NCBI RefSeq assembly: GCF_058153355.1
Contig: NZ_CM177019.1
Length of the DNA: 64,000 nucleotides
Strand: one strand, 5' to 3'
Part shown: positions 35,552-59,879 of the stretch, piece after piece
Position numbering within the stretch: position 1 is the first letter of the stretch
Layout: each line of letters opens with the position of its first letter
Notes under the pieces: generated by a model
Seen by the model: the letters and a program-made list of their open reading frames with translations, nothing else
The model's database searches: none
Told to the model about the DNA's origin: nothing
Made by a program: the position numbers and the translations under genes

Positions 35552-35556
35552 GTTTC

Positions 35557-36207
35557 ATGAGAAATATTATGAAAAAAGTACTCATTCTTGGTGCTGGCGG
35601 TCAGATAGCCCGCCATGTGATTAATCAACTGGCAGATAAACAAACCATTAAACAAACTTTATTTGCTCGTCAGCCAGCAAAAATACACAAACCCTATCCA
35701 ACTAATAGCCAGATTATTATGGGGGATGTACTGAATCATGCAGCACTGAAGCAGGCCATGCAGGGACAGGATATTGTGTATGCCAACCTTACGGGGGAAG
35801 ATTTAGATATTCAGGCAAATTCAGTGATCGCTGCGATGAAAGCCTGTGATGTTAAACGTCTGATCTTTGTTCTTTCCCTCGGCATTTATGATGAAGTTCC
35901 AGGAAAATTTGGCGAATGGAATAATGCAGTTATTGGTGAGCCCCTAAAACCATTCCGCAGGGCTGCGGATGCAATTGAGGCTTCTGGACTGGAATATACA
36001 ATTCTTCGCCCTGCCTGGCTGACTGATGAAGATATTATTGATTATGAGCTTACCTCACGCAATGAACCATTCAAAGGTACGATCGTATCACGTAAGAGTG
36101 TCGCAGCATTAATCACAGATATCATCGATAAACCTGAGAAACACATTGGTGAGAATATAGGCATCAATCAACCCGGGACTGATGGTGATAAGCCCTTCTT
36201 CATGTAA
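35557..36207 (+). CDS. NAD(P)H-binding NmrA/SDR-like protein (216 aa)
   Basis: N-terminal Rossmann motif VLILGAGGQIARHV; I recall only a fragment (ymjC) at this position in K-12. Confidence 0.7.
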   Translation: MRNIMKKVLILGAGGQIARHVINQLADKQTIKQTLFARQPAKIHKPYPTNSQIIMGDVLNHAALKQAMQGQDIVYANLTGEDLDIQANSVIAAMKACDVKRLIFVLSLGIYDEVPGKFGEWNNAVIGEPLKPFRRAADAIEASGLEYTILRPAWLTDEDIIDYELTSRNEPFKGTIVSRKSVAALITDIIDKPEKHIGENIGINQPGTDGDKPFFM

Positions 36208-42710: not shown

Positions 42711-43772
42711 TTATTTTTCGCTGGGCGTTTTGCCTTTTTGCAGCGTCTCTTTCACCTGACCGATAAGCTGACGACGGAAATCCCCGAGGCGAGGTTTGTC
42801 ATCGTCAATCCACGGCAGCGGGCGGCAAAGCTCCATAGCTTTAATCCCCAGTCGCGCCGTCAGAAGTCCAGCACCAATCCCCTGAGCTGCGCGGGTAGAC
42901 AAACGCGCAGCGAGATCTTGCGACATCCAGTCCATCCCCACTTCGCGCACCAGTTCGCTGGCTCCGGCGAAAGCGATATTCAGCAATACCAGCTTAAACA
43001 GGCGCAAACGGCTGTAATATCCCAGTTCAATGCCATACAGCGTGGCGATGCGATTGATCAAACGCAGATTGCGCCAGGCGATAAATGCCATATCCACCAG
43101 CGCCAGCGGGCTAACGGCGATCATTAACGTTGATTCCGCCGCTGAGCGACTGATTTCGCGCCGCGCCTGAGCATCTAAAACCGGCTGGACCAGATGAGCA
43201 TACAGGCTGACCACTTCACGATCGTTCTGCGTTTCATGGATTGACGCATACCAGCGTTGCAGCGCCGGATGGGACTGATCAATACCCGCCTGCTGCGCCA
43301 GTTTTTCACAAAATGCGCGGCCTTTGCCCGTGCCGTGGCTGTGCAATAAATCACGCGCTTCGTCGCGTTCATGGGCGCGCTGTCGCAAGCGCCATAAGCG
43401 CCGCCACTCTGTTACCACAGAACCTACGCCAGCGCCGATAATCAATGCCCCAGCGGCACATCCACCCAGCGCTACCCAATCCTGAGTTTGCCAGGCATTC
43501 ATCGTCCACTGCACGCCCTGTCCGACAACGCTTGCACCAAACAGAGCCAACCCGCCCATCACCATTTTGCGCCACAGGCTGCGTTTCGGACGTAACGCCG
43601 CGTCCATCACCGCTTCAACTTGCCCCTCTTCTTCCTGCGCTTCGTCGAGCGTGGCCGGGGCAAAATTTTGCGCCTGATTTTCGTCAAAGGTCTGCTGCGC
43701 CCTGAATTTTGGATTCTGATCGACCTCCAGTGGACCGTCGAAATCAATACGTGGTTTTAACGGTTCGGTCAT
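42711..43772 (-). CDS. ycjF: UPF0283 membrane protein YcjF (353 aa)
   Basis: 353-aa ORF with TM helices; 4-bp overlap with ycjX stop. Confidence 0.8.
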
Positions 43773-45166
43773 CGCAATTTATCTCCTATTAAAAATTCCA
43801 GCGCAGCATCAAGGCGAATATGCGGCAACGGTTTGTCGACATCCATCACCTGCGGGCGAAACGCCTCAAACTGGAAGCCTTGCTTATCCCAGAACGCCTG
43901 GCCAGGCAAACGTGCGGGAACTTCGCCAGGATACACAGTGAGCGGTGCGCCATCGCTGAGTCGATTACCGCGCAGCGCCGGGATTTTCTCACCGTTAACA
44001 TCAATAATGCCGCTGGTGGTCGCCTGAACTGACGCCAGCCCCAGGCAGTCCATGCTGATCCCTTCGAACGCCGCATTTTGCCAGGCATCCTGAATCAGTT
44101 GTTGCAGTAATGAAACCATATTGGCGTGCTGATCGATGGTCACATGATCCGCTTTAGTGGCAGCAAACAATAGCTTATCGATAACCGGCGAAAACAAGCG
44201 CCGGAACAAGGTACGCTGCCCGTAGTGGAAGCTTTGCATCAGCTGCGTCAGCGCCAGACGCATATCATTGAATGCTTGTGGTCCACTGTTGAGAGGTTGC
44301 AGGCAATCCACCAGCACAATCTGCCGATCAAAGCGCAGAAAATGATTTTTATAGAACCCCTTCACCACTTTCTCGCAGTAATAATTAAACCGTTCGCGCA
44401 GCATTCCGGCATTGGTGTGCTTGTCGGCCTGTGCAAGTTTTGATTCGCCCCAGGCATCGACATCTGGCCACGGGAAGAATTGCAGCGCGGGCGCACCTGC
44501 CATATCGCCCGGCAAGACAAAACGCCCAGGCTGAATAAAGTGCAGCCCCTGCTGTTTGCAGTGGTGGAGATAATCGGTCCATGCGGCAGCAATGTCTGCA
44601 AGACGGTTTTCGTCGGCAGGTGCTAGTGGGTCCAGCCCTTCGCACATCATTCGCCATTTTGCCGACCATTCGCCGCGCTGACCATTGAGTAAGCCTGTCA
44701 TCTGGCGCGACCAGCTTAAATAGTCCTGCGCCAACATCGGCAAGTCGAGTAACCATTCGCCAGGATAATCCACTATCTCCAGATACAACGTGGAAGTGTC
44801 TTTGAAGTGACGCAACAGCGAATCGTTCGATTTATAGCGTAGCGCCAGGCGAATCTCACTGACGCCGCGTGTTGGGGTCGGCCAGGCGGGAGGATCGCCA
44901 TATAACTGCGCCAGCCCTTCATCGTAGGTGAAGCGCGGAATGCCAAAGTCACGCTGGGGAATGCGTTTTACGCCCAGCAGGCGCTCTTCACGCACCGCAC
45001 TTAATAGCGGCAAGCGTGCTCCGGCATGAATATTGAGCAACTGATTGACCATCGCAGTGATAAACGCGGTTTTGCCGCTGCGGCTAAGTCCGGTTACAGC
45101 GAGGCGCAGATGTCTGTCGACACCCCGATTCACCAGCGCATTAAGTTCATTTTTAAGTCGCTTCAT
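43769..45166 (-). CDS. ycjX: P-loop NTPase YcjX (465 aa from [10 protein letters not shown])
   Basis: Walker A GLSRSGKT. Confidence 0.8.
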
Positions 45167-45310
45167 TGCTGTCCTGTGGACCAGAAAAAAATCATTCGTA
45201 AGGATATGAATGTGGGGGCCATGCCCTTGATTATCAACTGCCCGTGTTGTCATCTTGAGGCGAACTCCATAAGATGTGCAGCATTCACGTTCGGACGGAG
45301 TTCCTGACCT

Positions 45311-46309
45311 ATGTCCCCTACTATTTATGATATTGCCAGGGTTGCCGGCGTATCAAAATCCACCGTATCACGCGTGCTGAATAAGCAAACCAATATCTCC
45401 CCGGAAGCGCGCGAAAAAGTGTTACGGGCCATTGAAGAATTACAGTATCAGCCAAATAAACTGGCCCGCGCGCTGACCTCTTCGGGCTTTGATGCCATTA
45501 TGGTGATTTCTACCCGCTCGACCAAAACTACGGCGGGTAACCCGTTTTTCTCCGAAGTTTTGCATGCCATTACCGCCAAAGCGGAAGATGAGGGTTTCGA
45601 CGTGATATTGCAGACGTCGCACAACCCAGCTGAAGACTTACAAAAATGTGAAAGCAAAATTAAGCAGAAAATGATTAAAGGCATTATTATGCTAAGTTCG
45701 CCAGCAGATGAGTCTTTTTTCGCCCAACTCGATAAATACGATATTCCGGTGGTAGTAATTGGCAAAGTTGAAGGTGAATATGCCCATGTTTATTCTGTCG
45801 ATACCGATAATTTTGGCGACAGTATTGCGCTGACCGATGCGCTAATTGAAAGTGGACATAAAAATATTGCCTGCCTACATGCTCCGCTTGATGTCCATGT
45901 TTCGGTTGACCGCGTTAATGGTTATAAGCAAAGTCTGGAAGATCATAATATTGCAGTGCGCAATGAGTGGATCGTTGACGGTGGTTATACCCATGAGACA
46001 GCACTACAAGCCGCGCGGGAATTATTAAGCCAGTCACCGTTGCCTGAGGCAGTGTTTGCTACTGACAGCCTGAAATTAATGAGCATTTATCGTGCGGCGG
46101 CAGAGAAAAACATTGCTATTCCGCAGCAGTTAGCGGTGGTGGGTTATAGTAATGAAACGCTGTCGTTTATATTAACGCCTGCACCGGGCGGCATCGATGT
46201 TCCGACGCAGGAGTTAGGTCAACAAAGCTGCGAGTTATTATTCCGCTTAATTGCCGGAAAACCGTCACCACAAAATATTACCGTTGCCACGCATATGTCG
46301 TTGAAATAA
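45311..46309 (+). CDS. ycjW: LacI-family transcriptional regulator YcjW (332 aa)
   Basis: N-terminal LacI HTH ([21 protein letters not shown]) plus periplasmic-binding-like domain. Confidence 0.85.
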
Positions 46310-46419
46310 ATGCCAGCTACGTTGCCTGAATGCCGGATGCGATGCTGGCGCATCTTATCCGGCCTACATTTATAAACCGGATAAAGTACTCGCGCCGCAT
46401 CCGGCAATTTAGCACATTA
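46310..46419. repeat. REP/BIME extragenic palindromes
   Basis: gccggatgcgatgctggcgcatcttatccggcc and ggataaagtactcgcgccgcatccggc. Confidence 0.6.
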
Positions 46420-47325
46420 TCAGAACGCGTAATTCACACCGACACCTGCATAATGGAATTTATCGCTATCGCCTTCGTCGTGATCCTGCCACTCAAACGC
46501 GTATTCCAGCGAAACGGAAAGACCATTCTGGAAATCATAACCGTAAAACAAACCAAGACGGTTAAAATCATGGCCCTCACGTTCGATATCATCCTGCCAG
46601 TCCCAGTTACTCCAGCGATCCAACCCAATGCGCGTATACGGTGTCACCGAGTGGTTGCCGAGCGTCAGCGGTAAATAGGCGCGAATTTCTTGCGTGGAGA
46701 ATTCACCGTTATTGCGGCTGTCGTCCATATTGAAGCCGCGCTCGAGATAATAGTTCACTCGCAAGGCAACCGTTTCGTTGAAGGTATATTGCAGACCCGT
46801 TTCCGTTTCGACACGGGTATCAGCATAACCGGTTGTATTCAGATCGTTGGCAAATTTATACATCGACAGCCAACCGTTGAAACGTAAATCGTCAGTCAGT
46901 TTCACGTCCCAGTCTGGCGCGATTTTCCAGCGCTGCATATTTGCCGTGTCTTTACCCGGTTCATCAACGTAGTGATAACCATAGTTACGGAAACCACCGG
47001 TCAGGCCGAAACTGAAATCATCGCTTTCGAGAAACTGATAATGCACTTCCAGTTCCGGGCGATCAAACCAGGTTCCACGTTTACCCGCGCTATAATCTAC
47101 TGGCCCTTCCTGATAATAAGCCAGCGATATTCTCCACGGCCCGTTGGCAGCATTAAAATAGACGGAAGGCTCCGCCAGCCCGTCCATATCTTCGCCATAA
47201 CCCTCAACGTTTTCTATTTCGTACATCGCGCCGATATTAAAGTGCCAGTCGTTTTTTTCCTCAGCCTGTGCGCAGGCCATTCCCGCACACATCACCAGTG
47301 CGGTACAGGGTAATAACTTTTTCAT
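46420..47325 (-). CDS. ompG: monomeric outer-membrane porin OmpG (301 aa)
   Basis: signal peptide ...MACAQA; beta-barrel ending in aromatic residue (YAF). Confidence 0.9.
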   Translation of the reverse strand: MKKLLPCTALVMCAGMACAQAEEKNDWHFNIGAMYEIENVEGYGEDMDGLAEPSVYFNAANGPWRISLAYYQEGPVDYSAGKRGTWFDRPELEVHYQFLESDDFSFGLTGGFRNYGYHYVDEPGKDTANMQRWKIAPDWDVKLTDDLRFNGWLSMYKFANDLNTTGYADTRVETETGLQYTFNETVALRVNYYLERGFNMDDSRNNGEFSTQEIRAYLPLTLGNHSVTPYTRIGLDRWSNWDWQDDIEREGHDFNRLGLFYGYDFQNGLSVSLEYAFEWQDHDEGDSDKFHYAGVGVNYAF

Positions 47326-47369
47326 TATTGTTCCTTGTATTATCCTGGGGGAATGCCTTCCCCCTGTAT

Positions 47370-48452
47370 TTAGCGAATTGCTATTTCCGTTTCTGCATCA
47401 AAGAAATGACATTTGGTCATATCGAAATGAATAGTGACGTTTTCTCCTGCATGATAATCATTTAACGCACCGGCACGGACCACCAGCTCGTGCCCCCCAA
47501 CCGTGGTGTAGAGCATAAATTCCGCACCGGTTAATTCCGCCACGCTAATTTTGGCGGAAATGTTATTTTCCTCTTGCGCATCCGGATGAATATCTTCCGG
47601 GCGTATTCCCATCACGATGGGCTTATGCAAACTTTCCTGCGTTTTTAGAACCGCTAATTTATCTTCGGGAATGGTTAATTTAAGCGTTTCCGTAACGAAT
47701 TTATCACCATCGATCGTGCCGCGAATAAAATTCATTGCTGGTGACCCAATAAATCCGGCAACAAACATATTCGCCGGTTGGTTATAGACCGTTTTCGGCG
47801 CACCGACCTGCTGAACAATCCCATCCTTCATAATGACAATCCGCGTCGCCATGGTCATCGCTTCGGTCTGATCGTGGGTCACGTAGATCATGGTGGTGTT
47901 CAGTTTCTGATGCAGCTTGCTGATTTCCGCGCGCATTTGTACGCGCAGCTTGGCATCCAGGTTAGAGAGCGGTTCATCCATCAAAAACACGCCCGCTTCG
48001 CGCACAATCGCCCGTCCGAGCGCCACACGCTGGCGTTGCCCGCCGGAAAGCGCACCCGGCTTGCGTTTCAGGTACTCACGCAGGCCAAGGATTTGCGCCG
48101 CCCAGTTAACCCGCTCATCAATCACCTCTTTGGCGATTTTTTGCATCTTCAGGCCAAACGCCATGTTGTCGTAGACCGTCATATGCGGATACAGCGCGTA
48201 GTTCTGGAAAACCATCGCGATATTGCGCGCTTTGGCCGGAACGTCGTTCATTCGTTTGCCGTCGATCAACAGATCGCCGCCGCTGATCTCCTCAAGCCCG
48301 GCAATCATACGCAGGGTGGTCGATTTACCGCAGCCCGACGGACCGACAAACACGATGAACTCTTTATCGGCAATCTCCAGGTTGAAGTCCTTCACCACAT
48401 GCACCTGGTTATCGTAGATCTTTTGAATATGTTGTAACGAAAGCTGTGCCAT
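47370..48452 (-). CDS. ycjV: ABC-transporter ATPase YcjV (MalK/UgpC-like, 360 aa, full length)
   Basis: Walker A GPSGCGKST, signature LSGGQRQRV, Walker B FLMDEP, C-terminal MalK-like regulatory domain. Confidence 0.85.
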   Translation of the reverse strand: MAQLSLQHIQKIYDNQVHVVKDFNLEIADKEFIVFVGPSGCGKSTTLRMIAGLEEISGGDLLIDGKRMNDVPAKARNIAMVFQNYALYPHMTVYDNMAFGLKMQKIAKEVIDERVNWAAQILGLREYLKRKPGALSGGQRQRVALGRAIVREAGVFLMDEPLSNLDAKLRVQMRAEISKLHQKLNTTMIYVTHDQTEAMTMATRIVIMKDGIVQQVGAPKTVYNQPANMFVAGFIGSPAMNFIRGTIDGDKFVTETLKLTIPEDKLAVLKTQESLHKPIVMGIRPEDIHPDAQEENNISAKISVAELTGAEFMLYTTVGGHELVVRAGALNDYHAGENVTIHFDMTKCHFFDAETEIAIR

Positions 48453-48465
48453 GTTGATTCCTTTG

Positions 48466-49125
48466 CTATACGTTTTGCCAGAAGGCCGATAACCGCGGCC
48501 AGGTCAGAGATTCCGTTGAGGGCAGCAACAGTTGCGCCCCGGTTAAGCTCGTGCCGATCCCCACCGAGCGCATACCGCTGGCGTTAATGGCGTCAATACC
48601 CGCCTGCGCATCTTCAATGCCGATACATGCCTGCGGCGGCACGCCCAGCCCGGCACAGGCGGCGAGAAAGATTTCCGGATCCGGTTTCGAGTGTTTAAGT
48701 TGGGAAGCGTCCGCGCAGAAGGTGAAAAACTCGCGCAGTTCCAGCGCCGCTAAAATTGTTGGGGCATTCAGAGAGACGGAGGCCAGCCCTACCGGGATGC
48801 CTTGCGCCCGAAGATCTGCCAGCAAAGGCCGAATTCCCGGCAGAACAGCGTTAACCGTCAGTTCGCGCAGTGAGTGGACGTAGAGCAGATTTTTGCGATA
48901 CGCCAGTTGCGCCCGCTCCTGTGGGTTAAAGTCGCCCTCTTTGCCCCCGTGTTGCAGAATGCGTCGCAGGGACTCATCGCGGCTGATCCCTTTTAACGTC
49001 TCGTTAAATTGCGCATCGATGCTGATGCCGATTTCGGCGGCAATCTGCTGCCATGCCTGGAAGTGCAGATGTGCGGTGTCGGTGATCACGCCATCCAGAT
49101 CGAAAATTACCCCTTGTAGTTTCAT
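48466..49125 (-). CDS. ycjU: beta-phosphoglucomutase (HAD family, 219 aa)
   Basis: HAD motif [11 protein letters not shown]. Confidence 0.85.
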
Positions 49126-51389
49126 TCATCCTCCTGATGCGTGGTAGCGGTCCCATTGAAGGGCAAAATAAAATCACCCAAACAGAAAACAGATTCCTCA
49201 GCCACGGATATAAGCTGACCGTTCAAACGCATTGAAACGGGCGCAGAAGTTCGAATCGCAATACGCTGCGCGTCGAGAGTGACCTGTAATTCGCAGCCCT
49301 GCCAGAACAGAGGGAAAGATAACTGTTGCCACTGCTCAGGTAACGCTGGGTTCAGATGTAATTCGCCGTCGCGCACGCTGACTCCGGCAAAACCCTGAAT
49401 CGCCCCCAGCCAGATAGCGCCAGTTGCGGCGGCATGGATACCGTCATCGCAGCTATGCGGATCAGCACCAAGATCGATTTCACTCCCCTCGCGCCAGAAC
49501 GGGTAACTCTGCGCAAGCAAGCCACAACGCGCGGCAACAATGCCGTGGATCGCTTTACTCAATGACGAGTCGTGAATGGTGCGCGGTTCATAAAATTGCA
49601 GATTGGCGAGACAAGAGGCCGCTGAAAATTGTTCTGGTAGCATGTAATTGAGCATCACCACATCGGCCTGCTTGAGGATCTGCATCTCGTTCACTTCTGC
49701 GCGTGAATAATCCAGCAGAATGGTTTGTTTGCCTGCTGCCGCTTTGTATTTCGCCAGATCTATCGCCGGTTTCGCCATAAACGAATCATCCTGCGGCAAA
49801 ACGCCGTCGGGCTGAATTTCTGGCATCCACAGCTCTTTGAGGAACATGTCGGCACGATGAATAAACGCATCGTCGCTACAGCCAAACTGGCGAGCAATAT
49901 TCAGTGCCTGTTGGACGTTGTAGCAGGCCATATAACTTGTGTATGCGTTATTGTTAACGTGTTCGGTATATTCGTCTGGCCCAATAACATCATGAATTTC
50001 CAGACGATCGTTAACCCTTACCGCGCGGCTAATCCAGAACTTTGCGGTCTCCAGCAGTAGCGCCATGCCTTCGTGAGCAATGAAGCTTTCATCCCCCGTT
50101 ACCTGCCAGTATTGAATAACCGCCCAGGCGATATCGGCAACCAGATGATGTTCTGCCTGCGCTGAGGCCACTTTTTGCCGCAGCCCGGTACGAATGTTAA
50201 TGGCGGCAAATTCCGGCGTTTCTTCTTCGCCGCTACGTGCGCTCTCCCACGGAAACAGCGCGCCCTGCCAGCCATTGCGTCGCGCTTTCTCCTGCGCGCC
50301 AGGCAAGTTGTGCCAGCGATAGCGCAGTAAACTTCGGGCAATCGTCGGTTCGCTAAACAGATGGAACGGCAGCAGGAACACTTCCGTATCCCAGAAAACG
50401 TGGCCTTTGTAGCCTTCGCCGGTTAAGCCTTTCGCCGCAATGCTGCTACGCTCGTCGTGGGCGGGCGTCATAATACGTAAATGATAAAGCGCATAGTCTA
50501 ACGCCCGCTGATCGTGCGCATCGCAACTGTTTACCGTGACACGACGTTTCTGCCACCATTGCTGCCAGTTTTCTGTGGATGCTGCAAGAAGTTGGTCATA
50601 ACTCTGCTGCGCGCACATTTCGAGCTGGCGAAGCGACGCACTGCCCCACTCGTCTAAAGCAGCTTGTCGGTCGTCCCGCCAGGCAATCCACACCCGCTTT
50701 TGCAAGGTCAGTGTCTCACCTGTGCGAAGTTGCGCGCTGGTATGTTGCAGCAAACGGCGCTCTTTTGCGGTATAGCACTGCTGAACGTCACCACTCGCCT
50801 GACAGTGACAACTGATTGCCACATCACTGCGCCCATCCTGGGTGGTGTAGATCCCCTGCATCAGGTGCTGACCGAACACCCGCACCTGGGTTTCGTCAAG
50901 ATGCTGGCGACCGTGGTTGGTTTGCGTGGCGTTAATGCCTGTTGAGATCAGCACTGATGCCTCGGCGTCCAGCGGGGTAATACTGATTTCCAGCGCGATC
51001 AACGGCAGTTGATCTGTCGAAACAAAGCGACGACTTGCAAGGGTGAACCCTGCGCCGTCGCTGGTGCGCCAGATAACACTGCGGCGTAATTCTCCACTGG
51101 CAAAGTCAAGCTCACGCTGCCACGCTTCGCGGGATAACGAAAAAATCTCGCCGTTTAGGGTAATTTCCATTCCCACCACGTCTGGCAGATTCACCAGTTC
51201 GTTGATTTCACCTTTCCCGGCTCGATGATAAAGCCCTGCCAGATACATGCCGCGCGTCTGCCGCGTGTAATCTTCTTCATGGCTGGCACGAAGCCCAAGA
51301 TAGCCGTTTCCCTGCGCCATTAATGAGGCATATTTATTCAGGGTATGCTGGCTGAAATGGGGTTCCGTTAATGTTACTGGCCTGGTCAT
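49122..51389 (-). CDS. ycjT: GH65 disaccharide (kojibiose-type) phosphorylase YcjT (755 aa)
   Basis: GH65-family length and composition; 4-bp overlaps with both neighbours. Confidence 0.8.
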
Positions 51390-52441
51390 AATTCCACACG
51401 CGTCCCTGTTTCTGCGGATTGATACAGCGCCGCCACCAGTTGCTGGATGATGTACCCTTGCTCGGCGTCGGCAATCATCACTGGCTTGCCCTGTACGTGA
51501 TTGATAAAGGCTTCCATGCTGCGCAAATGACGGTTGTCGTCGGCCAGTTCCCGTTGCATCAACGTCATTAATTCACCGTTGTTGTCGGTATAGATATGCG
51601 CCGGAAATAGCGTGGCTCCCGCTTTATCGCCGCAAAAGCTGACGTTCATAATCGACTGTTCGCGGATGTTGAGTGCAAATGATGTCTCCAGCCAAAGAAT
51701 GCCGCCGTTATGAAATTCAATGGTGCCAAACAGCGAATCTTCGACGCTGTAGGTTGCCGGGTCCCACTCGCCAAATTGACCACAGCTCTTTTGCGGGCCG
51801 ATCTTTTGAAAGCTATGCGCATTCACGCTTTTCACCGCCGGAAAGCCCAGCACATACATCGCGGCATCCAGCATATGAATGCCGATGTCGATCAGCGGGC
51901 CACCGCCCTGCAGTTCTTTATTGGTAAAGACACCCCAACCGGGAACGCCGCAGCGACGCAGGGCGCGAGCGGTCGTCACGTAAATCTCACCCAAAACGCC
52001 GTTGGTCACCTGTTCACGCAGTTGTTGCGTATCAAGGGCAAAACGATGGTGAAAGTCGTAGGCCAGCACCTTGCCCTGTTTGCGCGCGGTATCGCACATT
52101 TCCCGCGCCTGTTCTGGCGTCATGGCGGGCGGTTTCTCGCACATCACATGGCAGCCTGCCTCCAGCGCCATCAGGGTATGCTCGTAATGAAAACGGTTAG
52201 GTGAACAGACGCTTATCACGTCAGGTTTTACCGCCAGCAGCATGGCCTGCGGATCGTCCCACACGGATGCGTTCCCGTATTTCTCTGCCAGCGCCTGCGC
52301 CTGGGAAAGGCGGCTGTCACAGACAGCCACCAGTTCCAGATCGTTGCGGGTGCAGTAGTACGAAGCATGAACCTTATCCGCCACCTGGCCCGCGCCTATT
52401 ATCGCGACCCGCAGCGGAGAGCTTGTCATTGCACTTTTCAC
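51386..52441 (-). CDS. ycjS: Gfo/Idh/MocA-family NAD-dependent oxidoreductase YcjS (351 aa)
   Basis: Rossmann N-terminus RVAIIGAGQVADKVH. Confidence 0.8.
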   Translation of the reverse strand: MKSAMTSSPLRVAIIGAGQVADKVHASYYCTRNDLELVAVCDSRLSQAQALAEKYGNASVWDDPQAMLLAVKPDVISVCSPNRFHYEHTLMALEAGCHVMCEKPPAMTPEQAREMCDTARKQGKVLAYDFHHRFALDTQQLREQVTNGVLGEIYVTTARALRRCGVPGWGVFTNKELQGGGPLIDIGIHMLDAAMYVLGFPAVKSVNAHSFQKIGPQKSCGQFGEWDPATYSVEDSLFGTIEFHNGGILWLETSFALNIREQSIMNVSFCGDKAGATLFPAHIYTDNNGELMTLMQRELADDNRHLRSMEAFINHVQGKPVMIADAEQGYIIQQLVAALYQSAETGTRVEL

Positions 52442-52450
52442 AAAGACCTC

Positions 52451-53239
52451 TTAGCAGGTGCGCAACCAGGCCAAAGAATCACGGTACGCCTGAGCAGGAT
52501 CTTCTGCCCGGATACGCCCTTCATACACCACATAGCCCTGATAGTTATCGGCGCGCAACTGTTCAAACAGCGCGTGGAAATCGAGGGTGCCGCTGCCCGG
52601 CTGATAGCGATGATTATCGGCAATATGCACATGACCAAGCAGGTCACGGTTGTCATGCAGCGCCTGCGCCAGGTTATCCTCTTCGATGTTCATGTGATAG
52701 AAATCGCCGATAATCTGCACATGTTTAAGGTTGTTTTCGACGATGTAACGACGAGCATCGGCGAGCGTGTTGATCATGTGGTCCTGATAGCGGTTTAGCG
52801 GTTCGAGATACACCACCGTTCCGGTACGCGCGGCCACCTTTTCCAGGAAACGCAGGGAATCGCTCACCATTTGACGATCGCCGTCCAGGCTGCGCGGTGA
52901 GGTCATCGGCGGTAAGCGGAAGGTAAACATGCCCCACGCAGCCGGAACGACAATACCTTTGCCGCCCACTTCCGCCAGCGCCTCAAGAATGCGCTCGATC
53001 TGCTTTAAACCATTAAGACGACGTTCTTCGATAAAGTCGCCAATCCAGCCGTCATAGCCGCCGCAGGCAGTGGTCACCGGTAAACCGGTTTCTTTGATCG
53101 CTGCTTTGACTTCTTCGATATTGTTAACCAGCAGTTTGCCGTCAATCTCAAAACCATCAAAACCCATCTCTTTGATATAACGAAATTTCTCCAGAATATT
53201 TTCCGGGAAAAAGGCCTGATTCTGTGTACCGATTTTCAT
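52451..53239 (-). CDS. ycjR: xylose-isomerase-like TIM-barrel sugar epimerase YcjR (262 aa)
   Basis: AP-endonuclease-2/sugar-isomerase fold. Confidence 0.8.
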   Translation of the reverse strand: MKIGTQNQAFFPENILEKFRYIKEMGFDGFEIDGKLLVNNIEEVKAAIKETGLPVTTACGGYDGWIGDFIEERRLNGLKQIERILEALAEVGGKGIVVPAAWGMFTFRLPPMTSPRSLDGDRQMVSDSLRFLEKVAARTGTVVYLEPLNRYQDHMINTLADARRYIVENNLKHVQIIGDFYHMNIEEDNLAQALHDNRDLLGHVHIADNHRYQPGSGTLDFHALFEQLRADNYQGYVVYEGRIRAEDPAQAYRDSLAWLRTC

Positions 53240-53255
53240 TTTTCCGTTCTTAGAA

Positions 53256-54308
53256 TTAAAAAGTTACGCCCATTTTGATGCTCTGTTCCGGATGCTGGTC
53301 GACATACTGCATGTAGCTTTCCGGGCTGTTAGCAAAGGTCACCACCGGGTCGATTAAATCTTCACAATTGAGATAACCGTTCATCAGCAGTTCCCAGCAG
53401 GTTTCTTCAATACGCTTGCGACTCCAGCGCGGATAATCCGGGTTCGGTTCACTGCACGCACGAGAGAAGACAATTTTGGCGTTGTTGAAATGCGCTTCGC
53501 GTCCGAGGTTAAAACCTTCAGCAAACGGTTTGGCAAACGCAACATAGGAGATGGTGCCGCCATAAGCCAGGCCGCGCAGTGCCGATTGCAGCGCGTCGGC
53601 GTAGCCGCTGGTTTCGATAATCACATCGGCACCCTGCTTGCCGGTCAGCGTTTTAATCTCTTTGCCTACATCCGTGCCAATGGGGTTAAGGCAGAAATCC
53701 GCGCCGTGGCGACGGGCAATATCACAGCGATGAGCGATAGGATCGACACCAATCACCACCGACGCGCCAGCGCGTTTTGCCAGTTGAATGGCAATTTGAC
53801 CAATCGCGCCAAGCCCTACCACCACCACAAAATCGCCCACGCGCACGTTGGCATCGCGCACGCCGCTCATGGCAAACTGCGCCGGGTCGTAACAGACGGC
53901 GTTTTTCCACGAGCTACCTTGCGGCATTTTGCGCAGTTTGTAGTTATTCACCGCGTTAATGATGACCGTTTCGGAAAGCGGGCCGTAGCCGCATACGCTG
54001 TCGCCCACCGCGTAGTCGGTAACCTCGCTGCCGCACTCGATAATGTCGCCAACCACCATGTTGCCAAGCTGGAACTTGCCAAACTCAATGCCGCGCGGCG
54101 CATCTGCCGGACGCGGGGTGAACATCTGCCATTCGCCATTAAAGTCTTCATTAATAAACGGGCTGGCGGCGCGGAAATCGACCACTTCCGTCCCGTGTTT
54201 CGGCGCGCCGAACCGCACGCGGATCTTCACTTCATTGGCTGAAATCGCCCTGTCTTCATACTCCACCAACGCGGCAACGCGCGGTGCTGTGGCTACTAAC
54301 TTTTTCAT
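53256..54308 (-). CDS. ycjQ: Zn-dependent medium-chain dehydrogenase YcjQ (350 aa)
   Basis: MDR family with cofactor motif VVGLGAIGQIA. Confidence 0.8.
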   Translation of the reverse strand: MKKLVATAPRVAALVEYEDRAISANEVKIRVRFGAPKHGTEVVDFRAASPFINEDFNGEWQMFTPRPADAPRGIEFGKFQLGNMVVGDIIECGSEVTDYAVGDSVCGYGPLSETVIINAVNNYKLRKMPQGSSWKNAVCYDPAQFAMSGVRDANVRVGDFVVVVGLGAIGQIAIQLAKRAGASVVIGVDPIAHRCDIARRHGADFCLNPIGTDVGKEIKTLTGKQGADVIIETSGYADALQSALRGLAYGGTISYVAFAKPFAEGFNLGREAHFNNAKIVFSRACSEPNPDYPRWSRKRIEETCWELLMNGYLNCEDLIDPVVTFANSPESYMQYVDQHPEQSIKMGVTF

Positions 54309-54338
54309 GTAAAACTCCTTGTCAAGAAACTGGCCGCT

Positions 54339-55181
54339 TTAGCCCTTCACGCCACCGGCGGTCAAACCACTCTTAATAAAACGTTCCGAAAGTGCATACA
54401 TAATCACCACCGGCAATGCGGTCACCAGCGAGGCCGCCATCATTCGGCCCCAGATGTAATCAGGGGTACTGAACAGCGCGTTCAGGCCTACCGGTAAAGT
54501 GAAATTGCTGGCGCTGGAGAGGAAAATCGAGGCAAACAGATAGTCGTTCCATGCCACCATAAAGCAGTAGACGAACACGGATATCAGCCCGGACATCGCC
54601 AGCGGTACCGTGATGCGGAAGATGATTTGCAACCGGTTGAGGCCATCCATCATCGCCGCTTCTTCGATTTCATCGGGGATGGTGTCGAAGTAGCTTTTCA
54701 GCATAAACACGGCGGTAGGCAGGGTTTGCGTCACCATGGTGATGATCAGCGCCATCTCGGTGTCGTAAATGCCAAGCGCAGTGATGATTTTGAACAGCGG
54801 CACCACCAGCAAAATGCCGGAGAACATGTACACCGTGTAGAAGCTGGCGTTGATGGTCATTCGCCCTTTAAAGCGCAGGCGGGAAAGCGCGTAAGCCCCG
54901 AGAATGCCGAGAAATACTGCTATCACGGATGAAACTACCGACACCACCAGGCTGTTACGGAAATAATCGACAAACGGGAAAATCACCGGGTTAAAAATGT
55001 CGACGTAATGCTCCAGCGTCCACTGCTGTGGCAGCAGCGTAGGATGCAGCGAGATCGCCTCTTTCGCGCTTTTGAACGAGGTCATCAGCATCACAAAAAA
55101 GGGAAACAGCGTGATGATGAGAAACAGCGCCAGCCCGCAGTAAAAACCGATGCGACTGAGTGTGCGTTTATTTGTTGCCAT
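54339..55181 (-). CDS. ycjP: sugar ABC-transporter permease YcjP (280 aa)
   Basis: MalG-like permease; overlaps ycjO. Confidence 0.8.
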   Translation of the reverse strand: MATNKRTLSRIGFYCGLALFLIITLFPFFVMLMTSFKSAKEAISLHPTLLPQQWTLEHYVDIFNPVIFPFVDYFRNSLVVSVVSSVIAVFLGILGAYALSRLRFKGRMTINASFYTVYMFSGILLVVPLFKIITALGIYDTEMALIITMVTQTLPTAVFMLKSYFDTIPDEIEEAAMMDGLNRLQIIFRITVPLAMSGLISVFVYCFMVAWNDYLFASIFLSSASNFTLPVGLNALFSTPDYIWGRMMAASLVTALPVVIMYALSERFIKSGLTAGGVKG

Positions 55182-56049
55182 TGAGGTTCACCCGTTTTCT
55201 GGTCAGCAGAATGACAGCGAAAATAATGATGAAGAGCACCACTGAGATCGCCGCCGCTTTCCCTAAGTCATTAAAGGCAAAGGCGGTTTTGTAGAGATAG
55301 ACGCCGAGAATATCGACCTTGGTCGTCAGCAAATAAACGTCAGCGAACATGTAGAACATCCAGATGGTACGCAGAGTCACCACCGTCGCCAGGACCGGCA
55401 TAATCGCGGGCAGCGTGACGATGCGAAACCGTTGCCAGGCATTCGCGCCGTCCATCTCTGCCGCTTCGTACAACGATTTATCAATGGTCTGCAAAATCGC
55501 CAGAAACGAGATAAAGGCATACGGGAAGTAGCGCCAGATGGCGAACAGCACCACCAGCACAAAACTACTGCCCGGGTTATCGAACCACAGCGGCGCCTGC
55601 TCATAGAGATGCAGAAGATCGACGCCGAGGTAGTTCACAATGCCGTAGCCGTTGTTGAACATGTATTTCCAGGCGAACACCAGCGAAATGGATGGCGTTA
55701 CGTAGGAGAGGATCACCAACGAACGCGCGGTCTTGCGCAGGCGAAACTCGCGGTTGAAAAACATCGCCACTGCCAGCCCGAGCACGGTGCTGCCCGCCAC
55801 CACCAGCGCGGTATACCAGACCGTCATCCACAGCGAGTGCCAGAAGCCGGGATCGGAGAGAATACGCACATAGTTGCTCACCCCAACAAACGTTGCCTCG
55901 ATGTTGGGATTGAGCGGCAGACGTAAAAAACTGATTTCGATATTCGACACCATTGGCCACGCCACCAGACCGCCCAGCAGTAATAAGCTGGGCGCGAGAA
56001 GCAGCAGCGCAAAGGGCATATCGGAACGACCTGAAAAAAGCCTGTTCAT
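55168..56049 (-). CDS. ycjO: sugar ABC-transporter permease YcjO (293 aa)
   Basis: MalF-like permease. Confidence 0.8.
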   Translation of the reverse strand: MNRLFSGRSDMPFALLLLAPSLLLLGGLVAWPMVSNIEISFLRLPLNPNIEATFVGVSNYVRILSDPGFWHSLWMTVWYTALVVAGSTVLGLAVAMFFNREFRLRKTARSLVILSYVTPSISLVFAWKYMFNNGYGIVNYLGVDLLHLYEQAPLWFDNPGSSFVLVVLFAIWRYFPYAFISFLAILQTIDKSLYEAAEMDGANAWQRFRIVTLPAIMPVLATVVTLRTIWMFYMFADVYLLTTKVDILGVYLYKTAFAFNDLGKAAAISVVLFIIIFAVILLTRKRVNLNGNK

Positions 56050-56069
56050 TGCGGATTCCTGTCCTGGGA

Positions 56070-57362
56070 TTAGTGCTGTTCGATCAGTTCATCCAGCTTT
56101 TTCTGGCTCGCTTGCAGCGTGGTTGAGAGATCGGCTTTCCCCACGGTGACGTTATGCACCATTGAACTCACCACACCAGAGCCCGTGACATCGCCCATGC
56201 GGGTAAAGTTTTTGTCCCCTACCGCACCAAAAACCTGAATGTTTGGCAGTTCGCTAATCAACTGATTCGGCAAGTCTCCCAGCGCCTTAATCACATCGTT
56301 ATCTTTCCAGGTGGCAGTCGTCACAACCGCTTTGTTCACCGGCAGCGCCGCGCCTGGTGACATCATCACCCAGTCGGCAATGTTGTCTGCCTGCTCCATA
56401 AAGGTGACAAATTTTTCCGCCGCTTCCGTCTCTTCGCTGTTTTGCCCGGCGGTAATGGTCAGCGAGGTCAACATGCCGTAGACCGCCGAGTTTTTCTCGG
56501 TTGGCACCACGAAACCGACATTTTTCGGGTCACCTTCTTTAATCACAGCCGGAAGGATATAGGTGGAGTAAATCGCCATCGGCGCGGTGCCGTTCATAAA
56601 GGCGTCTTTCACTTCCATAATGTCGTTAGAACCCGGCATGGTGTTGGCAGCAAGGTCGCGGTAATAGGTCAGCGCCTGCATCATCTCCGGCGTATCAAGA
56701 GTGATTTTGCCTTCGGCGTTAAAAACGTTGGCCTGATTGGATAACGCAAACTGAGAGAACGATTGTTCCGTCAGTACGCTTTCTGCCGTCGGCAGTGCAA
56801 TACCGTATTTTTTATTCGCCGGATCGTTCAGTTTCTGTGCGACATCCAGCAACTGTTGCCAGTTTTTCGGCTCATCCAGCCCGGCTTTTGCCAGCACATC
56901 TTTGCGATACCAGATACCGCCAATCCATGCGCTGACAGGAACACCGGTCCAGGCGCTACCATCTTCGGTGCGCACAATCCGCAGAACGCCGTCATAAAAC
57001 GCGCCTTCACCGACATTACTGATGACCGTAGCAACCGCTTTGCGATCGATAAGCTGTTCTTTGTCCATCACTTTCGCGTAGTCATGGCTGGTTTCGATCA
57101 CTTCCGGCAGCGAGCCGCTACGGGAAAGGGTGATGACTTTGGTGTTATAGGCATCTTCTTCCACCGGCACTTGTTTAACAGTGATGCCTGGGTTTTCTTT
57201 TTCAAAACGCGCAATTAACTGACTTATAACCGCCTGGCGTTCCTGTTCCACCGAAGAATGCATAAACTCGATGGAGACATTCGTTTTATTTTCTTCTTTA
57301 CAACCTGAAATCAGGGCGCAGGAAACCAGTGCTGATAACAGCACGATTTTAGATTTAATCAT
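56070..57362 (-). CDS. ycjN: sugar ABC-transporter periplasmic binding lipoprotein YcjN (430 aa)
   Basis: signal peptide plus lipobox LISGCK; family-1 solute-binding protein. Confidence 0.8.
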   Translation of the reverse strand: MIKSKIVLLSALVSCALISGCKEENKTNVSIEFMHSSVEQERQAVISQLIARFEKENPGITVKQVPVEEDAYNTKVITLSRSGSLPEVIETSHDYAKVMDKEQLIDRKAVATVISNVGEGAFYDGVLRIVRTEDGSAWTGVPVSAWIGGIWYRKDVLAKAGLDEPKNWQQLLDVAQKLNDPANKKYGIALPTAESVLTEQSFSQFALSNQANVFNAEGKITLDTPEMMQALTYYRDLAANTMPGSNDIMEVKDAFMNGTAPMAIYSTYILPAVIKEGDPKNVGFVVPTEKNSAVYGMLTSLTITAGQNSEETEAAEKFVTFMEQADNIADWVMMSPGAALPVNKAVVTTATWKDNDVIKALGDLPNQLISELPNIQVFGAVGDKNFTRMGDVTGSGVVSSMVHNVTVGKADLSTTLQASQKKLDELIEQH

Positions 57363-57375
57363 GAGATGTTCCTTT

Positions 57376-59055
57376 TTATTTAATCCACATAACCTGCCAG
57401 GGGCGCAGCGTTATTTCATTACCCACTATATCAACTTCACTAATCAGATCCCGACCGTGCAGGTCAGTAATATTTATATGCTGAATATTTTCACTGACAT
57501 TAAACAAGCCCGTCAGACAATTACCATCCGCGTTGCTTCTTTGAATACGCATTACGGATGAATTAACCGTATCGATGGTAAAATCATTATCTGGATGAAA
57601 CTCGTTATGACTGCGACGAATTTTAATTAGTCGCGACAATTCATGATATACCGCGTGCCTTAACGTCGCTTTATTGTTCAGTTCGGTCGTGATCTCTTCG
57701 CTGGTGTATTTTTTACGGTTAATCGCACGGTTATATCCCAGTTTTTCGACACCTGCGTAATCATTACGCGAGCCCAGAATACTTTGAATATATATCGCGG
57801 GCACACCGGGGAAAATTAACAAAATCGCATGGGCAAGGATAAACCTGGCGCAACGTTCTTCATCGCTACTCTCGCGGCGGCTTAACGCATCCATATAAGT
57901 GACATTCATTTCATACGGGCTACGCGTACCGTCGGGATTATTTTTCCAGTTAACTAATGCCCCTTCCTGCTGTAATGCCTCGACCAGCGCTAATATTTCG
58001 CTTTCGGGTAGCAAGCCACGCAGTGGGTTAAGCCCGATGCCATCGTGAGAGGCGAGGAAGTTAAACCAGGTGGTGTTGCTGGAAGGTAGTGTCAGGTTTT
58101 GCGCCCACGCACAAAGCGCCTCAACGTTCTGTTTTTGCACCGCATGCAGCACCAGCGGCGGCAGCGAGAACTGGTACACCATATGCGCTTCGTCATCACC
58201 GTTGCCAAAGTAAGCAATGTTGTCTTTGTGCGGAACATTGGTCTCGGTAATGATCACTGTACCTGGTGCTACGTCATCAATAATCGACCGTAACAGCTTG
58301 ATAATCAGATGTGTTTTTTCCAGATGGATGCAGCTTGTTCCCGGCTCTTTCCACATAAAGCCAACGGCATCCAGGCGGACATACTCAGCACCTTTCTCAA
58401 GGTAACACAGTAAAACATCCACCATCGCCAGTAACACTTCAGGGCTACGGTAATTCAGGTCAATTTGATCGTCGCTAAAGGTGGTCCATAAATGGCGCGT
58501 TGAATGATCGCGCATCTGGAATGGCGTTAATAACGGTAACGCACGCGGGCGAGTGACGGCGCTGAGATCGGTTTGCGGGTCAACGGCAATAAAAAAATCT
58601 TCAAAGCCTGGCTGCTGCTGTAAATAGTTTTTAAACCATTCACTTTTTGCCGACATATGGTTGCAGACAAAATCAAACATTAAATGACTGCATTCACCGA
58701 GTTGCTGAATATCCTGCCACTCCCCCGCTTCACTGGCGACCTGATGATAATCAATTACCGAAAAGCCATCATCAGATGACCATGGATAAAACGGCAACAA
58801 ATGAACATGTGAAAAAATGCTTTGCAGCCAGTGATGGTAAAACTGATTAAATGTGGGTAGTGGTTTTAAATCATTACTGTGAAATTGATCGGCATAGGTA
58901 ATTAACACGACATCACTTTCATCCCAGTGTTTTTTACGTCGTTGTGTAATTAATCTTTTCGCACTCTCAAGACGCGTTACAAGTTTCTGTAAATGAGTCG
59001 CGGTAAATGTTCCACCGTAGATTTCGTCCAGGTAATCCGTAATTTTCTGTTTCAT
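57376..59055 (-). CDS. ycjM: GH13 sucrose-phosphorylase-like glycoside phosphorylase YcjM (559 aa from MKQKITDY)
   Basis: GH13_18-like sequence; first gene of ycjM-V operon. Confidence 0.8.
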   Translation of the reverse strand: MKQKITDYLDEIYGGTFTATHLQKLVTRLESAKRLITQRRKKHWDESDVVLITYADQFHSNDLKPLPTFNQFYHHWLQSIFSHVHLLPFYPWSSDDGFSVIDYHQVASEAGEWQDIQQLGECSHLMFDFVCNHMSAKSEWFKNYLQQQPGFEDFFIAVDPQTDLSAVTRPRALPLLTPFQMRDHSTRHLWTTFSDDQIDLNYRSPEVLLAMVDVLLCYLEKGAEYVRLDAVGFMWKEPGTSCIHLEKTHLIIKLLRSIIDDVAPGTVIITETNVPHKDNIAYFGNGDDEAHMVYQFSLPPLVLHAVQKQNVEALCAWAQNLTLPSSNTTWFNFLASHDGIGLNPLRGLLPESEILALVEALQQEGALVNWKNNPDGTRSPYEMNVTYMDALSRRESSDEERCARFILAHAILLIFPGVPAIYIQSILGSRNDYAGVEKLGYNRAINRKKYTSEEITTELNNKATLRHAVYHELSRLIKIRRSHNEFHPDNDFTIDTVNSSVMRIQRSNADGNCLTGLFNVSENIQHINITDLHGRDLISEVDIVGNEITLRPWQVMWIK

Positions 59056-59221
59056 GTTGCCTTTCCGTGGTAGCGGTCCCATGAAACGAGAGACTACTCC
59101 GCAGAAAATAAACTGTCAATTGAGCACAAGGGTTTTAGTCACGCAGGAAATCATTTTTTACCAGGGAAAAAGCGTATTTGTGAGCTGACGCAAATAATCT
59201 ATGGGGATGTAAATAAGGTGT

Positions 59222-59251
59222 GACAGAAAAAGTAAACGGCGCATAAGCGCC
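59222..59251 (-). terminator. rho-independent terminator of the psp operon
   Basis: minus strand reads GGCGCTTATGCGCC then GTTTACTTTTTCTG. Confidence 0.7.
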
Positions 59252-59268
59252 GCTTAGGGTGGATTCTT

Positions 59269-59583
59269 TTAACCTTTGACCTTCGGCATTGCGATGTCTT
59301 TCAGGCCGCCAGCGTTCTCAACGTGGGTATATCCCATCTCGCTAAGGATCTCTTTTGCCTGCCCTGACTGGCGTCCGGCATTGCAATACACTTTCACGGT
59401 GTCGTTTTTATCCGGAACGGCGGTGGCAATGCGCTCTTTCACTTCCTTCAGGGGAATATTGATGGCTCCCTGAACGTGCTCTTGCTGATACTGCTCTGGA
59501 ACACGAACATCGATCCAGTGTTCAGCGGCGAAAACGGGCAGTGAAAACACCAGTGTCAGAGCAAGTAAGCCTTTTTTAAACAT
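59269..59583 (-). CDS. pspE: periplasmic rhodanese PspE (104 aa)
   Basis: signal peptide; rhodanese active-site Cys in YCNAGRQS. Confidence 0.9.
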   Translation of the reverse strand: MFKKGLLALTLVFSLPVFAAEHWIDVRVPEQYQQEHVQGAINIPLKEVKERIATAVPDKNDTVKVYCNAGRQSGQAKEILSEMGYTHVENAGGLKDIAMPKVKG

Positions 59584-59657
59584 GTAAGCGTCCTTCTATG
59601 GATGAAAATTGCCATCCATAATACGCCTTAGCTTGAACAATTTTTGCGAAACTCCCC

Positions 59658-59879
59658 TCACCTTTTATAACGCTGCGCCAGTTTATTGGCAGCCCGACTT
59701 AACAGCGGTTCCAGCGCCACGGCCAACAACATTTTCAGCGGTCGGCGAGCAACTGATTTTATCGCCCAGCCAGCCACACCCGCCGGGCCATAGCGCAGTG
59801 CAGTAAGAAGTACCAGCTTGCCTGCTAATTTGAAACCAGGCTTCATCTTTTGCCCGGCATGTTGCCAGCGAGTATTCAT
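59658..59879 (-). CDS. pspD: phage-shock protein D (73 aa from MNTRWQ)
   Basis: position and length in pspABCDE. Confidence 0.75.

Follow-up and report, generated by a model that had tools for sequence, protein, structure and literature searches.

The closest described counterpart of the locus analyzed here is the ycj operon of Escherichia coli K-12 MG1655 (b1309 to b1320, including ycjW). In the RefSeq annotation of MG1655, b1318 (ycjV) and b4524 (ymjB) are listed as pseudogenes, the two parts of a split gene. Earlier work cloned and purified full-length E. coli YcjV and showed it to have ATPase activity, and neither this protein nor MalK is able to replace MsmX in Bacillus subtilis (PMC7658222). 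The K-12 ycjV pseudogene is in routine use as a neutral site for integration (PMC10380740, PMC11731478). As for the substrate, none of the sugars tried on YcjN, kojibiose and maltose among them, produced a thermal shift (PMC11543891), and K-12 fails to grow when kojibiose is its only source of carbon, with deletion of ycjW being of no help (PMC6599011).

The 64-kb stretch of DNA analyzed here (the window; contig NZ_CM177019.1) contains the eleven genes of the K-12 MG1655 operon in unchanged order, ycjM-N-O-P-Q-R-S-T-U-V-ompG, all co-oriented on the minus strand at positions 46420 to 59055 (Table 1). The chromosomal setting between pspE and ycjW-ycjX is also that of K-12, and gene-by-gene comparison with MG1655, together with Pfam assignments, shows the genes, in this order, to be orthologous to b1309-b1319. 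None of the eleven genes is interrupted; the ten that K-12 retains intact (ycjM through ycjU plus ompG), as well as ycjW, match their K-12 MG1655 counterparts in length, and their products are 94.4 to 99.7% identical at the amino acid level, with no gaps or internal stops. The complete operon of the original prediction is therefore there, although the interval given for it, 47370 to 59055, needs an amendment: its upper end is the K-12-equivalent start of ycjM, but ompG, which was named as part of the operon, falls outside. In the ORF list, the minus-strand frames form a tight run from ycjV up to the one at 57376 to 59082, where the open frame of ycjM continues beyond its K-12-equivalent start. 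The intergenic gaps within the operon range from -14 to +44 nt, a spacing consistent with a single transcription unit; published expression data on the operon come from K-12 (PMC6599011). Consensus scans of positions 45200 to 59700 found no enrichment of either sigma-70 promoters (11 versus 14.8 in shuffled sequences) or terminators (19 versus 18), and only the hairpin that follows pspE was retained. Elsewhere in the window, a 684-aa ORF (38930 to 40984) had no match in Pfam, NCBIfam, or PADLOC; its AlphaFold model is poor (pLDDT 60.9), and a Foldseek search of the PDB returned only nonsignificant TPR-like matches (best E value, 6e-3; TM below 0.2).

Table 1. Genes and other sequence features in and around the ycj operon of the window
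Feature	Position	Strand	Evidence and remarks
ycjX	43769-45253		On the far side of ycjW from the operon
ycjW, LacI-type repressor of the operon	45311..46309	+	332 aa; 97.0% aa identity to K-12 YcjW; convergent with ompG
ompG, monomeric outer-membrane porin	46420..47325	-	301 aa; last gene of the operon; Porin_OmpG, E 5.5e-98; 98.3% aa identity to K-12
ycjV, MalK/MsmX/UgpC-type ABC ATPase	47370..48452	-	360 aa; ATG ORF; ABC_tran + OB_MalK + TOBE_2
G6 homopolymer, K-12 deletion site	47493..47498	-	CCCCCC on the plus strand; alignment with MG1655
ycjU, beta-phosphoglucomutase (HAD family)	48466..49125	-	219 aa; Hydrolase/HAD_2; 96.4% aa identity; product name per K-12 annotation
ycjT, GH65 kojibiose phosphorylase	49122..51389	-	755 aa; Glyco_hydro_65N/m/C; 94.4% aa and 90.7% nt identity to K-12
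Candidate YcjW operator 2, TGGGACCGCTACCA	49142..49155	-	Lies in ycjT, at its 3' end, and 17 nt upstream of where ycjU starts; identical in K-12
ycjS, Gfo/Idh/MocA D-glucoside 3-dehydrogenase	51386..52441	-	351 aa; starts with GTG, like K-12 ycjS; 98.9% aa identity; GFO_IDH_MocA on near-identical contig
ycjR, 3-dehydro-D-guloside 4-epimerase	52451..53239	-	262 aa; AP_endonuc_2 / xylose-isomerase-like TIM barrel (Pfam from near-identical contig); 98.5% aa identity; name per K-12 annotation
ycjQ, zinc-type D-guloside 3-dehydrogenase	53256..54308	-	350 aa; ADH_zinc_N (near-identical contig); 99.1% aa identity
ycjP, ABC permease	54339..55181	-	280 aa; BPD_transp_1; 98.9% aa identity
ycjO, ABC permease	55168..56049	-	293 aa; BPD_transp_1; 99.7% aa identity
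ycjN, lipoprotein substrate-binding protein	56070..57362	-	430 aa; SBP_bac_1; lipobox LISGC, Cys21
ycjM, GH13 glucosylglycerate phosphorylase	57376..59055	-	559 aa from the K-12-equivalent ATG; Alpha-amylase domain; 96.1% aa identity
Candidate YcjW operator 1, TGGGACCGCTACCA	59068..59081	-	13 nt upstream of the ycjM start; identical in K-12
Terminator-like hairpin 3' of pspE	59233..59256	-	10-bp stem, then T-run; upstream boundary of the ycj unit
pspE	59269-59583		

Two TGGGACCGCTACCA sites, which are the only copies of this sequence in the window, are shared with K-12 MG1655. The sequence is an imperfect 14-nt palindrome with a central CG and 2 mismatched arm pairs. The position of the first site fits the one reported from YcjW ChIP-seq and EMSA to lie "before the translation start of ycjM," and that of the second fits the published ChIP-seq peak "between ycjT and ycjU" (PMC6599011). 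By position and palindromy, both are assigned as candidate YcjW operators. At the ycjW position, the near-identical draft genome described below encodes LacI and Peripla_BP domains, and Cys21 of the YcjN lipobox matches the diacylated Cys21 reported for this protein (PMC11543891).

Taken from the literature on the K-12 orthologs and carried over to the strain under study, the pathway would begin with repression of the operon by YcjW from the two identical 14-bp candidate sites, one immediately before ycjM and the other where ycjT meets ycjU. Upon derepression, OmpG would let glycosides through the outer membrane, the lipoprotein YcjN would hand them to the YcjO/YcjP permease, and a dimer of YcjV would presumably power the transport. 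Inside the cell, YcjQ, YcjR, and YcjS would interconvert gulosides and glucosides, YcjT would phosphorolyze kojibiose and other alpha-1,2-glucosides, yielding glucose and beta-glucose-1-phosphate, and YcjU would convert beta-glucose-1-phosphate to glucose-6-phosphate, while YcjM would phosphorolyze glucosylglycerate.

The product of ycjV agrees with its original description as an uninterrupted 360-aa MalK-like ATPase with all ABC motifs and a C-terminal regulatory domain, as judged from the ORF, the Pfam matches, and the motif positions. It consists of the ABC_tran (residues 21 to 162; E value, 1.2e-31), OB_MalK (residues 236 to 288), and TOBE_2 (residues 282 to 351) domains and contains the Walker A motif (GPSGCGKS, residues 37 to 44), the Q-loop (Q83), the LSGGQ signature (residues 135 to 139), Walker B (residues 155 to 160), the D-loop (residues 163 to 166), and the H-switch (residues 192 to 194). 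Both B. subtilis MsmX (PDB 6yir; E value, 1e-148) and E. coli MalK (PDB 1q12; E value, 1e-99) align with it over the full length and share the same ABC motifs and the OB/TOBE domain; the alignment with MsmX reaches residue 360, the regulatory domain being complete. Unlike an orphan multitask ATPase, YcjV has its gene within the operon of its own transporter and catabolic enzymes. To our knowledge, it has no regulatory partner akin to those in the interactions of MalK with MalT or EIIAGlc.

The K-12 gene differs from that of the window in carrying a G5 tract, where the window has G6, and in being split into the ycjV and ymjB pseudogenes, where the window gene is uninterrupted. The original prediction took K-12 ycjV to be a truncated pseudogene and proposed a pairwise alignment to locate the lesion. 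That view is correct, and the alignment with MG1655 reduces the lesion to a 1-bp deletion in the G6 run, the sole gap, at gene nucleotides 955 to 960. As a result of this deletion, the K-12 frame shifts after codon 318 and the product stops at 322 aa, without residues 319 to 360 (42 residues of the TOBE domain). With G6 at these nucleotides, the window gene is not a K-12-type pseudogene. The pseudogene status of K-12 ycjV is already known and is part of the public reference annotation.

The frequencies of the two alleles were determined from exact matches to the G6 and G5 forms of a 74-nt K-12-derived probe among the 4,995 complete E. coli genomes that have this site. The exact G6 form is present in 4,379 of them, so that at least 87.7% have the intact allele, and the exact G5 form is found in 369 (7.4%). 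In a sample of 60 G5 records, 58 were K-12 laboratory derivatives (MG1655, C600, DH1, DH5alpha, J53, NCM3722, and others); two non-K-12 STEC assemblies, 2014C-3051 and 08-00022, have G5 on different allelic backgrounds. The G6 form is found in the B-type laboratory strain T7 Express, Nissle 1917, 536, O157:H7, IAI1, and ST131, and the ycjV genes of O157:H7, 536, IAI1, Nissle, and the B strains are, like that of the window, intact and encode 360 aa. Outside E. coli, an uninterrupted 360-aa ycjV is found in eight other enterobacterial species-representative records: Escherichia whittamii, two further Escherichia species, Salmonella enterica subsp. arizonae, Superficieibacter, two Citrobacter, and one record titled Pseudocitrobacter vendiensis.

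The window comes from a rare, diverged lineage. None of the 5,426 complete E. coli genomes matches the queried window regions at 99% identity or more, and the nucleotide identity of its ycjV to that of non-K-12 E. coli is only about 95 to 96.5% because of this divergence. The draft genome GCA_015332025.1 is near-identical (1 mismatch in 8,268 nt), and the closest species-representative record, again the one titled Pseudocitrobacter vendiensis, is 98.1% identical over 9.6 kb. Compared with K-12, the operon (89 to 95% nucleotide identity, dS up to 0.43) is more diverged than its flanks (96 to 98%). The dN/dS values of the individual operon genes range from 0.010 to 0.110 in this comparison, indicating strong purifying selection on every gene; for ycjV the value is 0.014, and its product differs from the frame-repaired K-12 product in 3 of 360 residues.

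These data make it highly probable that the window contains the ordinary chromosomal Escherichia ycjMNOPQRSTUV-ompG operon in its ancestral, undamaged state and that the full-length ycjV is simply the wild type; no sequence evidence in the window contradicts this reading. The K-12 pseudogene, in turn, would represent a lineage-specific loss of one G from the G6 homopolymer. Since the broken copy belongs to the K-12 laboratory strain, the window shows the usual wild-type state and not a strain-specific property.

Whether the difference matters for transport is a separate issue. Possibly, though we consider it doubtful, the 322-aa K-12 product or another CUT1-type ATPase, such as MalK or UgpC, still energizes YcjNOP, so that intact and frameshifted ycjV confer equal transport capacity. 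The truncation at residue 319 lies well past the ABC domain and the H-switch, so that the nucleotide-binding domain is spared entirely and the OB domain for the most part. Furthermore, MalK and UgpC are mutually substitutable in E. coli, shared multitask ATPases, the theme of PMC7658222, are common, and the score of YcjV against the NCBIfam UgpC subfamily model (484 bits, cutoff 432) indicates the closeness of these ATPases. However, the 42 lost residues hold the highly conserved C-terminal strands (HFFD..ETE..IR), aligned end to end with MsmX, and purifying selection on ycjV extends to the part after the lesion site (dN of 0.010 versus dS of 0.278 between the window and K-12). In addition, both PGAP and the EcoCyc-derived annotation class the K-12 gene as a pseudogene, and the failure of YcjV and MalK to replace MsmX means that the exchangeability of such ATPases is not universal.

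It is far less probable that the intact ycjV is a distinguishing asset that makes this strain unusually well suited as a background for work on the pathway, as the original prediction suggested. K-12 ycjV is truly frameshifted and K-12 does not grow on kojibiose, but the predominance of G6 in the species, the concentration of sampled G5 records among K-12 derivatives, the intact gene in convenient laboratory and model strains (B-derived T7 Express, Nissle, 536, O157:H7, and IAI1), and the earlier cloning and assay of full-length YcjV all speak against it; given the rarity of its lineage, the strain, far from being a better background, is a less convenient one. Least credible of all is that an artifact of sequencing or assembly accounts for the K-12 lesion, with no real difference behind it: long-read assemblies often miscall homopolymers and the G5 tracts of the two STEC assemblies could be such errors, but the exact G5 allele is common to 369 complete genomes, the sampled K-12 derivatives cover many sublines and laboratories, and the curated MG1655 reference retains ycjV/ymjB as pseudogenes. 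The same deletion on the two STEC backgrounds might also, though this seems rather unlikely, mark the G6 run as a hot spot of repeated slippage.

The significance of the intact ycjV in the window is small, as the gene is normally intact in the species. For K-12, the frameshift might be a reason, or one of the reasons, for the lack of growth of MG1655 on kojibiose and for the elusive nature of the Ycj substrate, a proposal that we regard as tentative and rather unlikely. We found no literature tying the failure of K-12 to grow on kojibiose to ycjV and, in searches for ymjB and for glucosylglycerate with ycjM, none linking the frameshift to a phenotype; the covered parts of the literature on YcjW, YcjN, and the pathway did not mention the truncation. 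Were the proposal true, the substrate of the Ycj system would come to light if growth and uptake were screened again in G6-repaired MG1655 or in any strain with G6, examples being BL21, W, and Nissle. Studying Ycj physiology in K-12 alone means studying it in a strain with a truncated form of the transporter's dedicated ATPase, and the negative kojibiose growth results from K-12 merit rechecking in a G6 background.

The ycjV gene encodes an uninterrupted 360-aa protein with the Walker A (residues 37-44), Q-loop (Q83), LSGGQ (135-139), Walker B (155-160), D-loop (163-166) and H-switch (192-194) motifs, along with ABC_tran, OB_MalK and TOBE_2 domains. It aligns end to end with Bacillus subtilis MsmX (6yir; E = 1e-148) and Escherichia coli MalK (1q12; E = 1e-99), up to the conserved C-terminal HFFD..ETE..IR strands, in agreement with the original prediction of a full-length ATPase with its regulatory domain. 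In MG1655, RefSeq lists two adjoining pseudogene pieces, b1318 (ycjV, 969 nt) and b4524 (ymjB, 114 nt), 1082 nt in total. The pairwise alignment that had been proposed for locating the K-12 lesion reveals 54 substitutions and a single gap, in a run of G residues at gene nt 955-960, which reads GGGGGG (G6) in the window and GGGGG (G5) in K-12. Codon 318 is the last one in frame in K-12, whose product ends at 322 aa, so that residues 319-360 are lost; with the missing G restored, the K-12 protein differs from that of the window at only 3 of 360 positions. The description of K-12 ycjV as a truncated pseudogene was therefore correct.

A 73-nt K-12 (G5) segment and its G6 version were searched against 5426 complete E. 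coli genomes. The site is present in 4995 of these, with exact G6 matches in 4379 genomes, including O157:H7, 536, IAI1, Nissle 1917, ST131 and the B-derived T7 Express, and exact G5 matches in 369; the other 247 have SNPs nearby, and these counts do not resolve their tract length. K-12 derivatives (MG1655 sublines, C600, DH1, DH5alpha, J53, RR1, NCM3722, and others) make up 58 of the 60 G5 records listed, and the remaining two are the STEC isolates 2014C-3051 and 08-00022. These two show the same G6-to-G5 frameshift in non-K-12 ycjV alleles (positions 581-1662 of each retrieved locus) that are separated from K-12 ycjV by 21 and 5 SNPs, respectively, and are labeled “frameshifted” by PGAP; their G5 tracts reflect either independent homopolymer slippage or (long-read) assembly errors. 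Some ycjV match was found in 5001 of the 5426 genomes, with none in ~8%, and 6 to 7 match places are on records classed as plasmids.

A single scan of GTDB species representatives with a degenerate pattern returned 12 loci, eight of which span the whole gene. These come from Escherichia whittamii and two further Escherichia species, Salmonella enterica subsp. arizonae, Superficieibacter electus, two Citrobacter records, and one record titled Pseudocitrobacter vendiensis. All eight encode an uninterrupted 360-aa YcjV, seven of them with G6; C. freundii has GGGTGGG at this site. The ancestral state of ycjV is full length.

The ORF listing shows eleven tightly packed genes, ycjMNOPQRSTUV and ompG, spaced by -14 to +44 nt. 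The predicted gene set stands, although ompG, named as part of the operon, lies just beyond the interval first assigned to it. Comparison with MG1655 (NC_000913.3, 1369000-1386000) shows exactly equal lengths, with no internal stops or gaps, for all ten genes that K-12 has intact, and amino acid identities to K-12 are 94.4-99.7%. Pfam matches agree with the predicted domains: GH13 Alpha-amylase in YcjM, SBP_bac_1 in YcjN, two BPD_transp_1 in the permeases YcjO and YcjP, GH65 N/m/C in YcjT, HAD in YcjU, and Porin_OmpG in OmpG; a near-identical public contig carries records of ADH_zinc_N (YcjQ), AP_endonuc_2 (YcjR), and GFO_IDH_MocA (YcjS). Between the window lineage and K-12, dN/dS is 0.010-0.110 across the operon (0.014 for ycjV), and strong purifying selection acts on every gene.

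Features of the ycj region and of other loci in the window
Feature	Position	Strand	Remarks
IS4-family transposase	28056-29402	minus	448 aa; Nterm_IS4 + DDE_Tnp_1; between ynaI and ynaJ
alpha/beta-hydrolase frame, split	34612-34986, 34919-35551	plus	overlapping ORFs, possibly frameshifted
NAD(P)H-binding protein	35557-36207	plus	216 aa, intact
684-aa ORF	38930-40984	plus	between tpx and tyrR; absent from K-12
ycjW	45311-46309	plus
ycjM-V/ompG operon	46420-59082	minus	eleven ORFs
ycjV	47370-48452	minus	360 aa
G run of ycjV	47493-47498		gene nt 955-960
candidate YcjW site 2	49142-49155		inside ycjT end, 17 nt before ycjU start
candidate YcjW site 1	59068-59081		13 nt before ycjM start
ycjM 5' extension	59056-59082	minus	27 nt; ATG at 59080-59082

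The 64-kb window contains exactly two copies of the 14-mer TGGGACCGCTACCA, which is imperfectly palindromic around a central CG, and K-12 has both sites as well; at least two matches, with up to 2 mismatches allowed, were seen in 3 of 100 shuffled windows. The strongest ChIP-seq peaks of YcjW, the LacI-type repressor of the operon, lie at these two positions, binding was shown by EMSA, deletion of ycjW strongly derepresses ycjM, ycjT, ycjU, and ompG, and 1 mM kojibiose frees YcjW from DNA in vitro (Luhachack et al., PMC6599011). Conservation of the candidate sites at the published peak positions suggests that the repressor circuit is intact, as it appears to be, in this strain. The ycjM frame stays open 5' of the K-12-annotated start (568 versus 559 aa). 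The upstream ATG shares two bases (59080-59081) with the upstream YcjW-type site, and the shorter K-12 start therefore seems more plausible.

Genes, motifs, candidate operators, and their intactness are read directly from the window; enzyme names come from K-12 annotation and the cited papers, and we infer their transfer to this strain from the 94-99.7% identity. Glycosides would cross the outer membrane via OmpG and pass from the lipoprotein YcjN, whose lipobox Cys21 is conserved in the window (PMC11543891), to YcjO/YcjP, energized by a YcjV dimer. YcjQ, YcjR, and YcjS would convert D-gulosides and D-glucosides into each other by way of 3-keto intermediates, YcjT would phosphorolyze kojibiose-type alpha-1,2-glucosides, YcjU would convert beta-glucose-1-phosphate to glucose-6-phosphate, and YcjM would phosphorolyze glucosylglycerate.

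The window and K-12 are collinear, but Rac and some of the deletions seen in K-12 are absent from the window. Nucleotide identity to K-12 is 89-95% across the ycj region (44500-58000) versus about 96-98% in the psp/puu and tyrR-side flanks, with dS of 0.38-0.43 for ycjN, R, T, and U and 0.15-0.18 for ycjO and M; the mosaic is suggestive of old divergence between alleles or of recombination from a more distant Escherichia lineage. None of the 5426 complete E. coli genomes matched the queried window stretches at ≥99%, and the best full-length operon match was 98.0%; a single mismatch in 8268 nt makes the draft assembly GCA_015332025.1 essentially identical. Over 9.6 kb of the operon, the record titled Pseudocitrobacter vendiensis CPO20170097T (NZ_CALSBS010000006.1) reaches 98.1% identity to the window, and its YcjV is the same as that of the window. 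This is far too close for another genus, so either the assembly is Escherichia-like or mislabeled, or the operon was recently transferred.

Several other loci also differ from K-12. Of 5426 complete E. coli genomes, only 32 carry the 684-aa ORF, which is a “hypothetical protein” in every annotation, has no matches in Pfam, NCBIfam, or PADLOC, and yields only 8 homologue clusters among 5.8 billion proteins (E. coli, Salmonella enterica, and a few metagenome/read-assembly sources). Its all-alpha, TPR-like model is poor (pLDDT 60.9), and a search with this model gave no significant fold matches. The Salmonella homologue shares its island with IS remnants and with genes for TsiV (T6SS immunity) and DUF4034 proteins, a setting that hints at an orphan gene of the immunity type. 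In K-12, IS5F occupies the same intergenic region as the IS4-family transposase does in the window. At 34612-36207, what K-12 retains is limited to two small remnants, ymjD and ymjC, and K-12 therefore carries a deletion there.

The papers on YcjW, YcjN, and the pathway that were covered here contain no mention of the pseudogene status of K-12 ycjV; in metabolic engineering papers the gene is described as a pseudogene and serves as a neutral site for integration (PMC10380740, PMC11731478, PMC4786092). ATP hydrolysis has been shown for expressed full-length E. coli YcjV (WP_000057985.1), although the protein is unable to substitute for MsmX in B. subtilis (PMC7658222). YcjN shows no thermal shift with kojibiose, maltose, or other sugars (PMC11543891), and MG1655 does not grow when kojibiose is its only carbon source, with or without ycjW (PMC6599011). 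The difference might be silent if YcjNOP is still driven by the 322-aa protein of K-12, by MalK, or by UgpC, which we regard as possible but rather unlikely; that a G5-to-G6 repair in K-12 would alter growth on candidate Ycj substrates seems unlikely. Given the G6 and G5 counts, an intact ycjV does not distinguish this strain. As a background for the pathway, for which it was proposed to be better than K-12, this rare lineage has no advantage over common G6 laboratory strains. The operon is the wild-type form, as already known, and K-12 is the exception.
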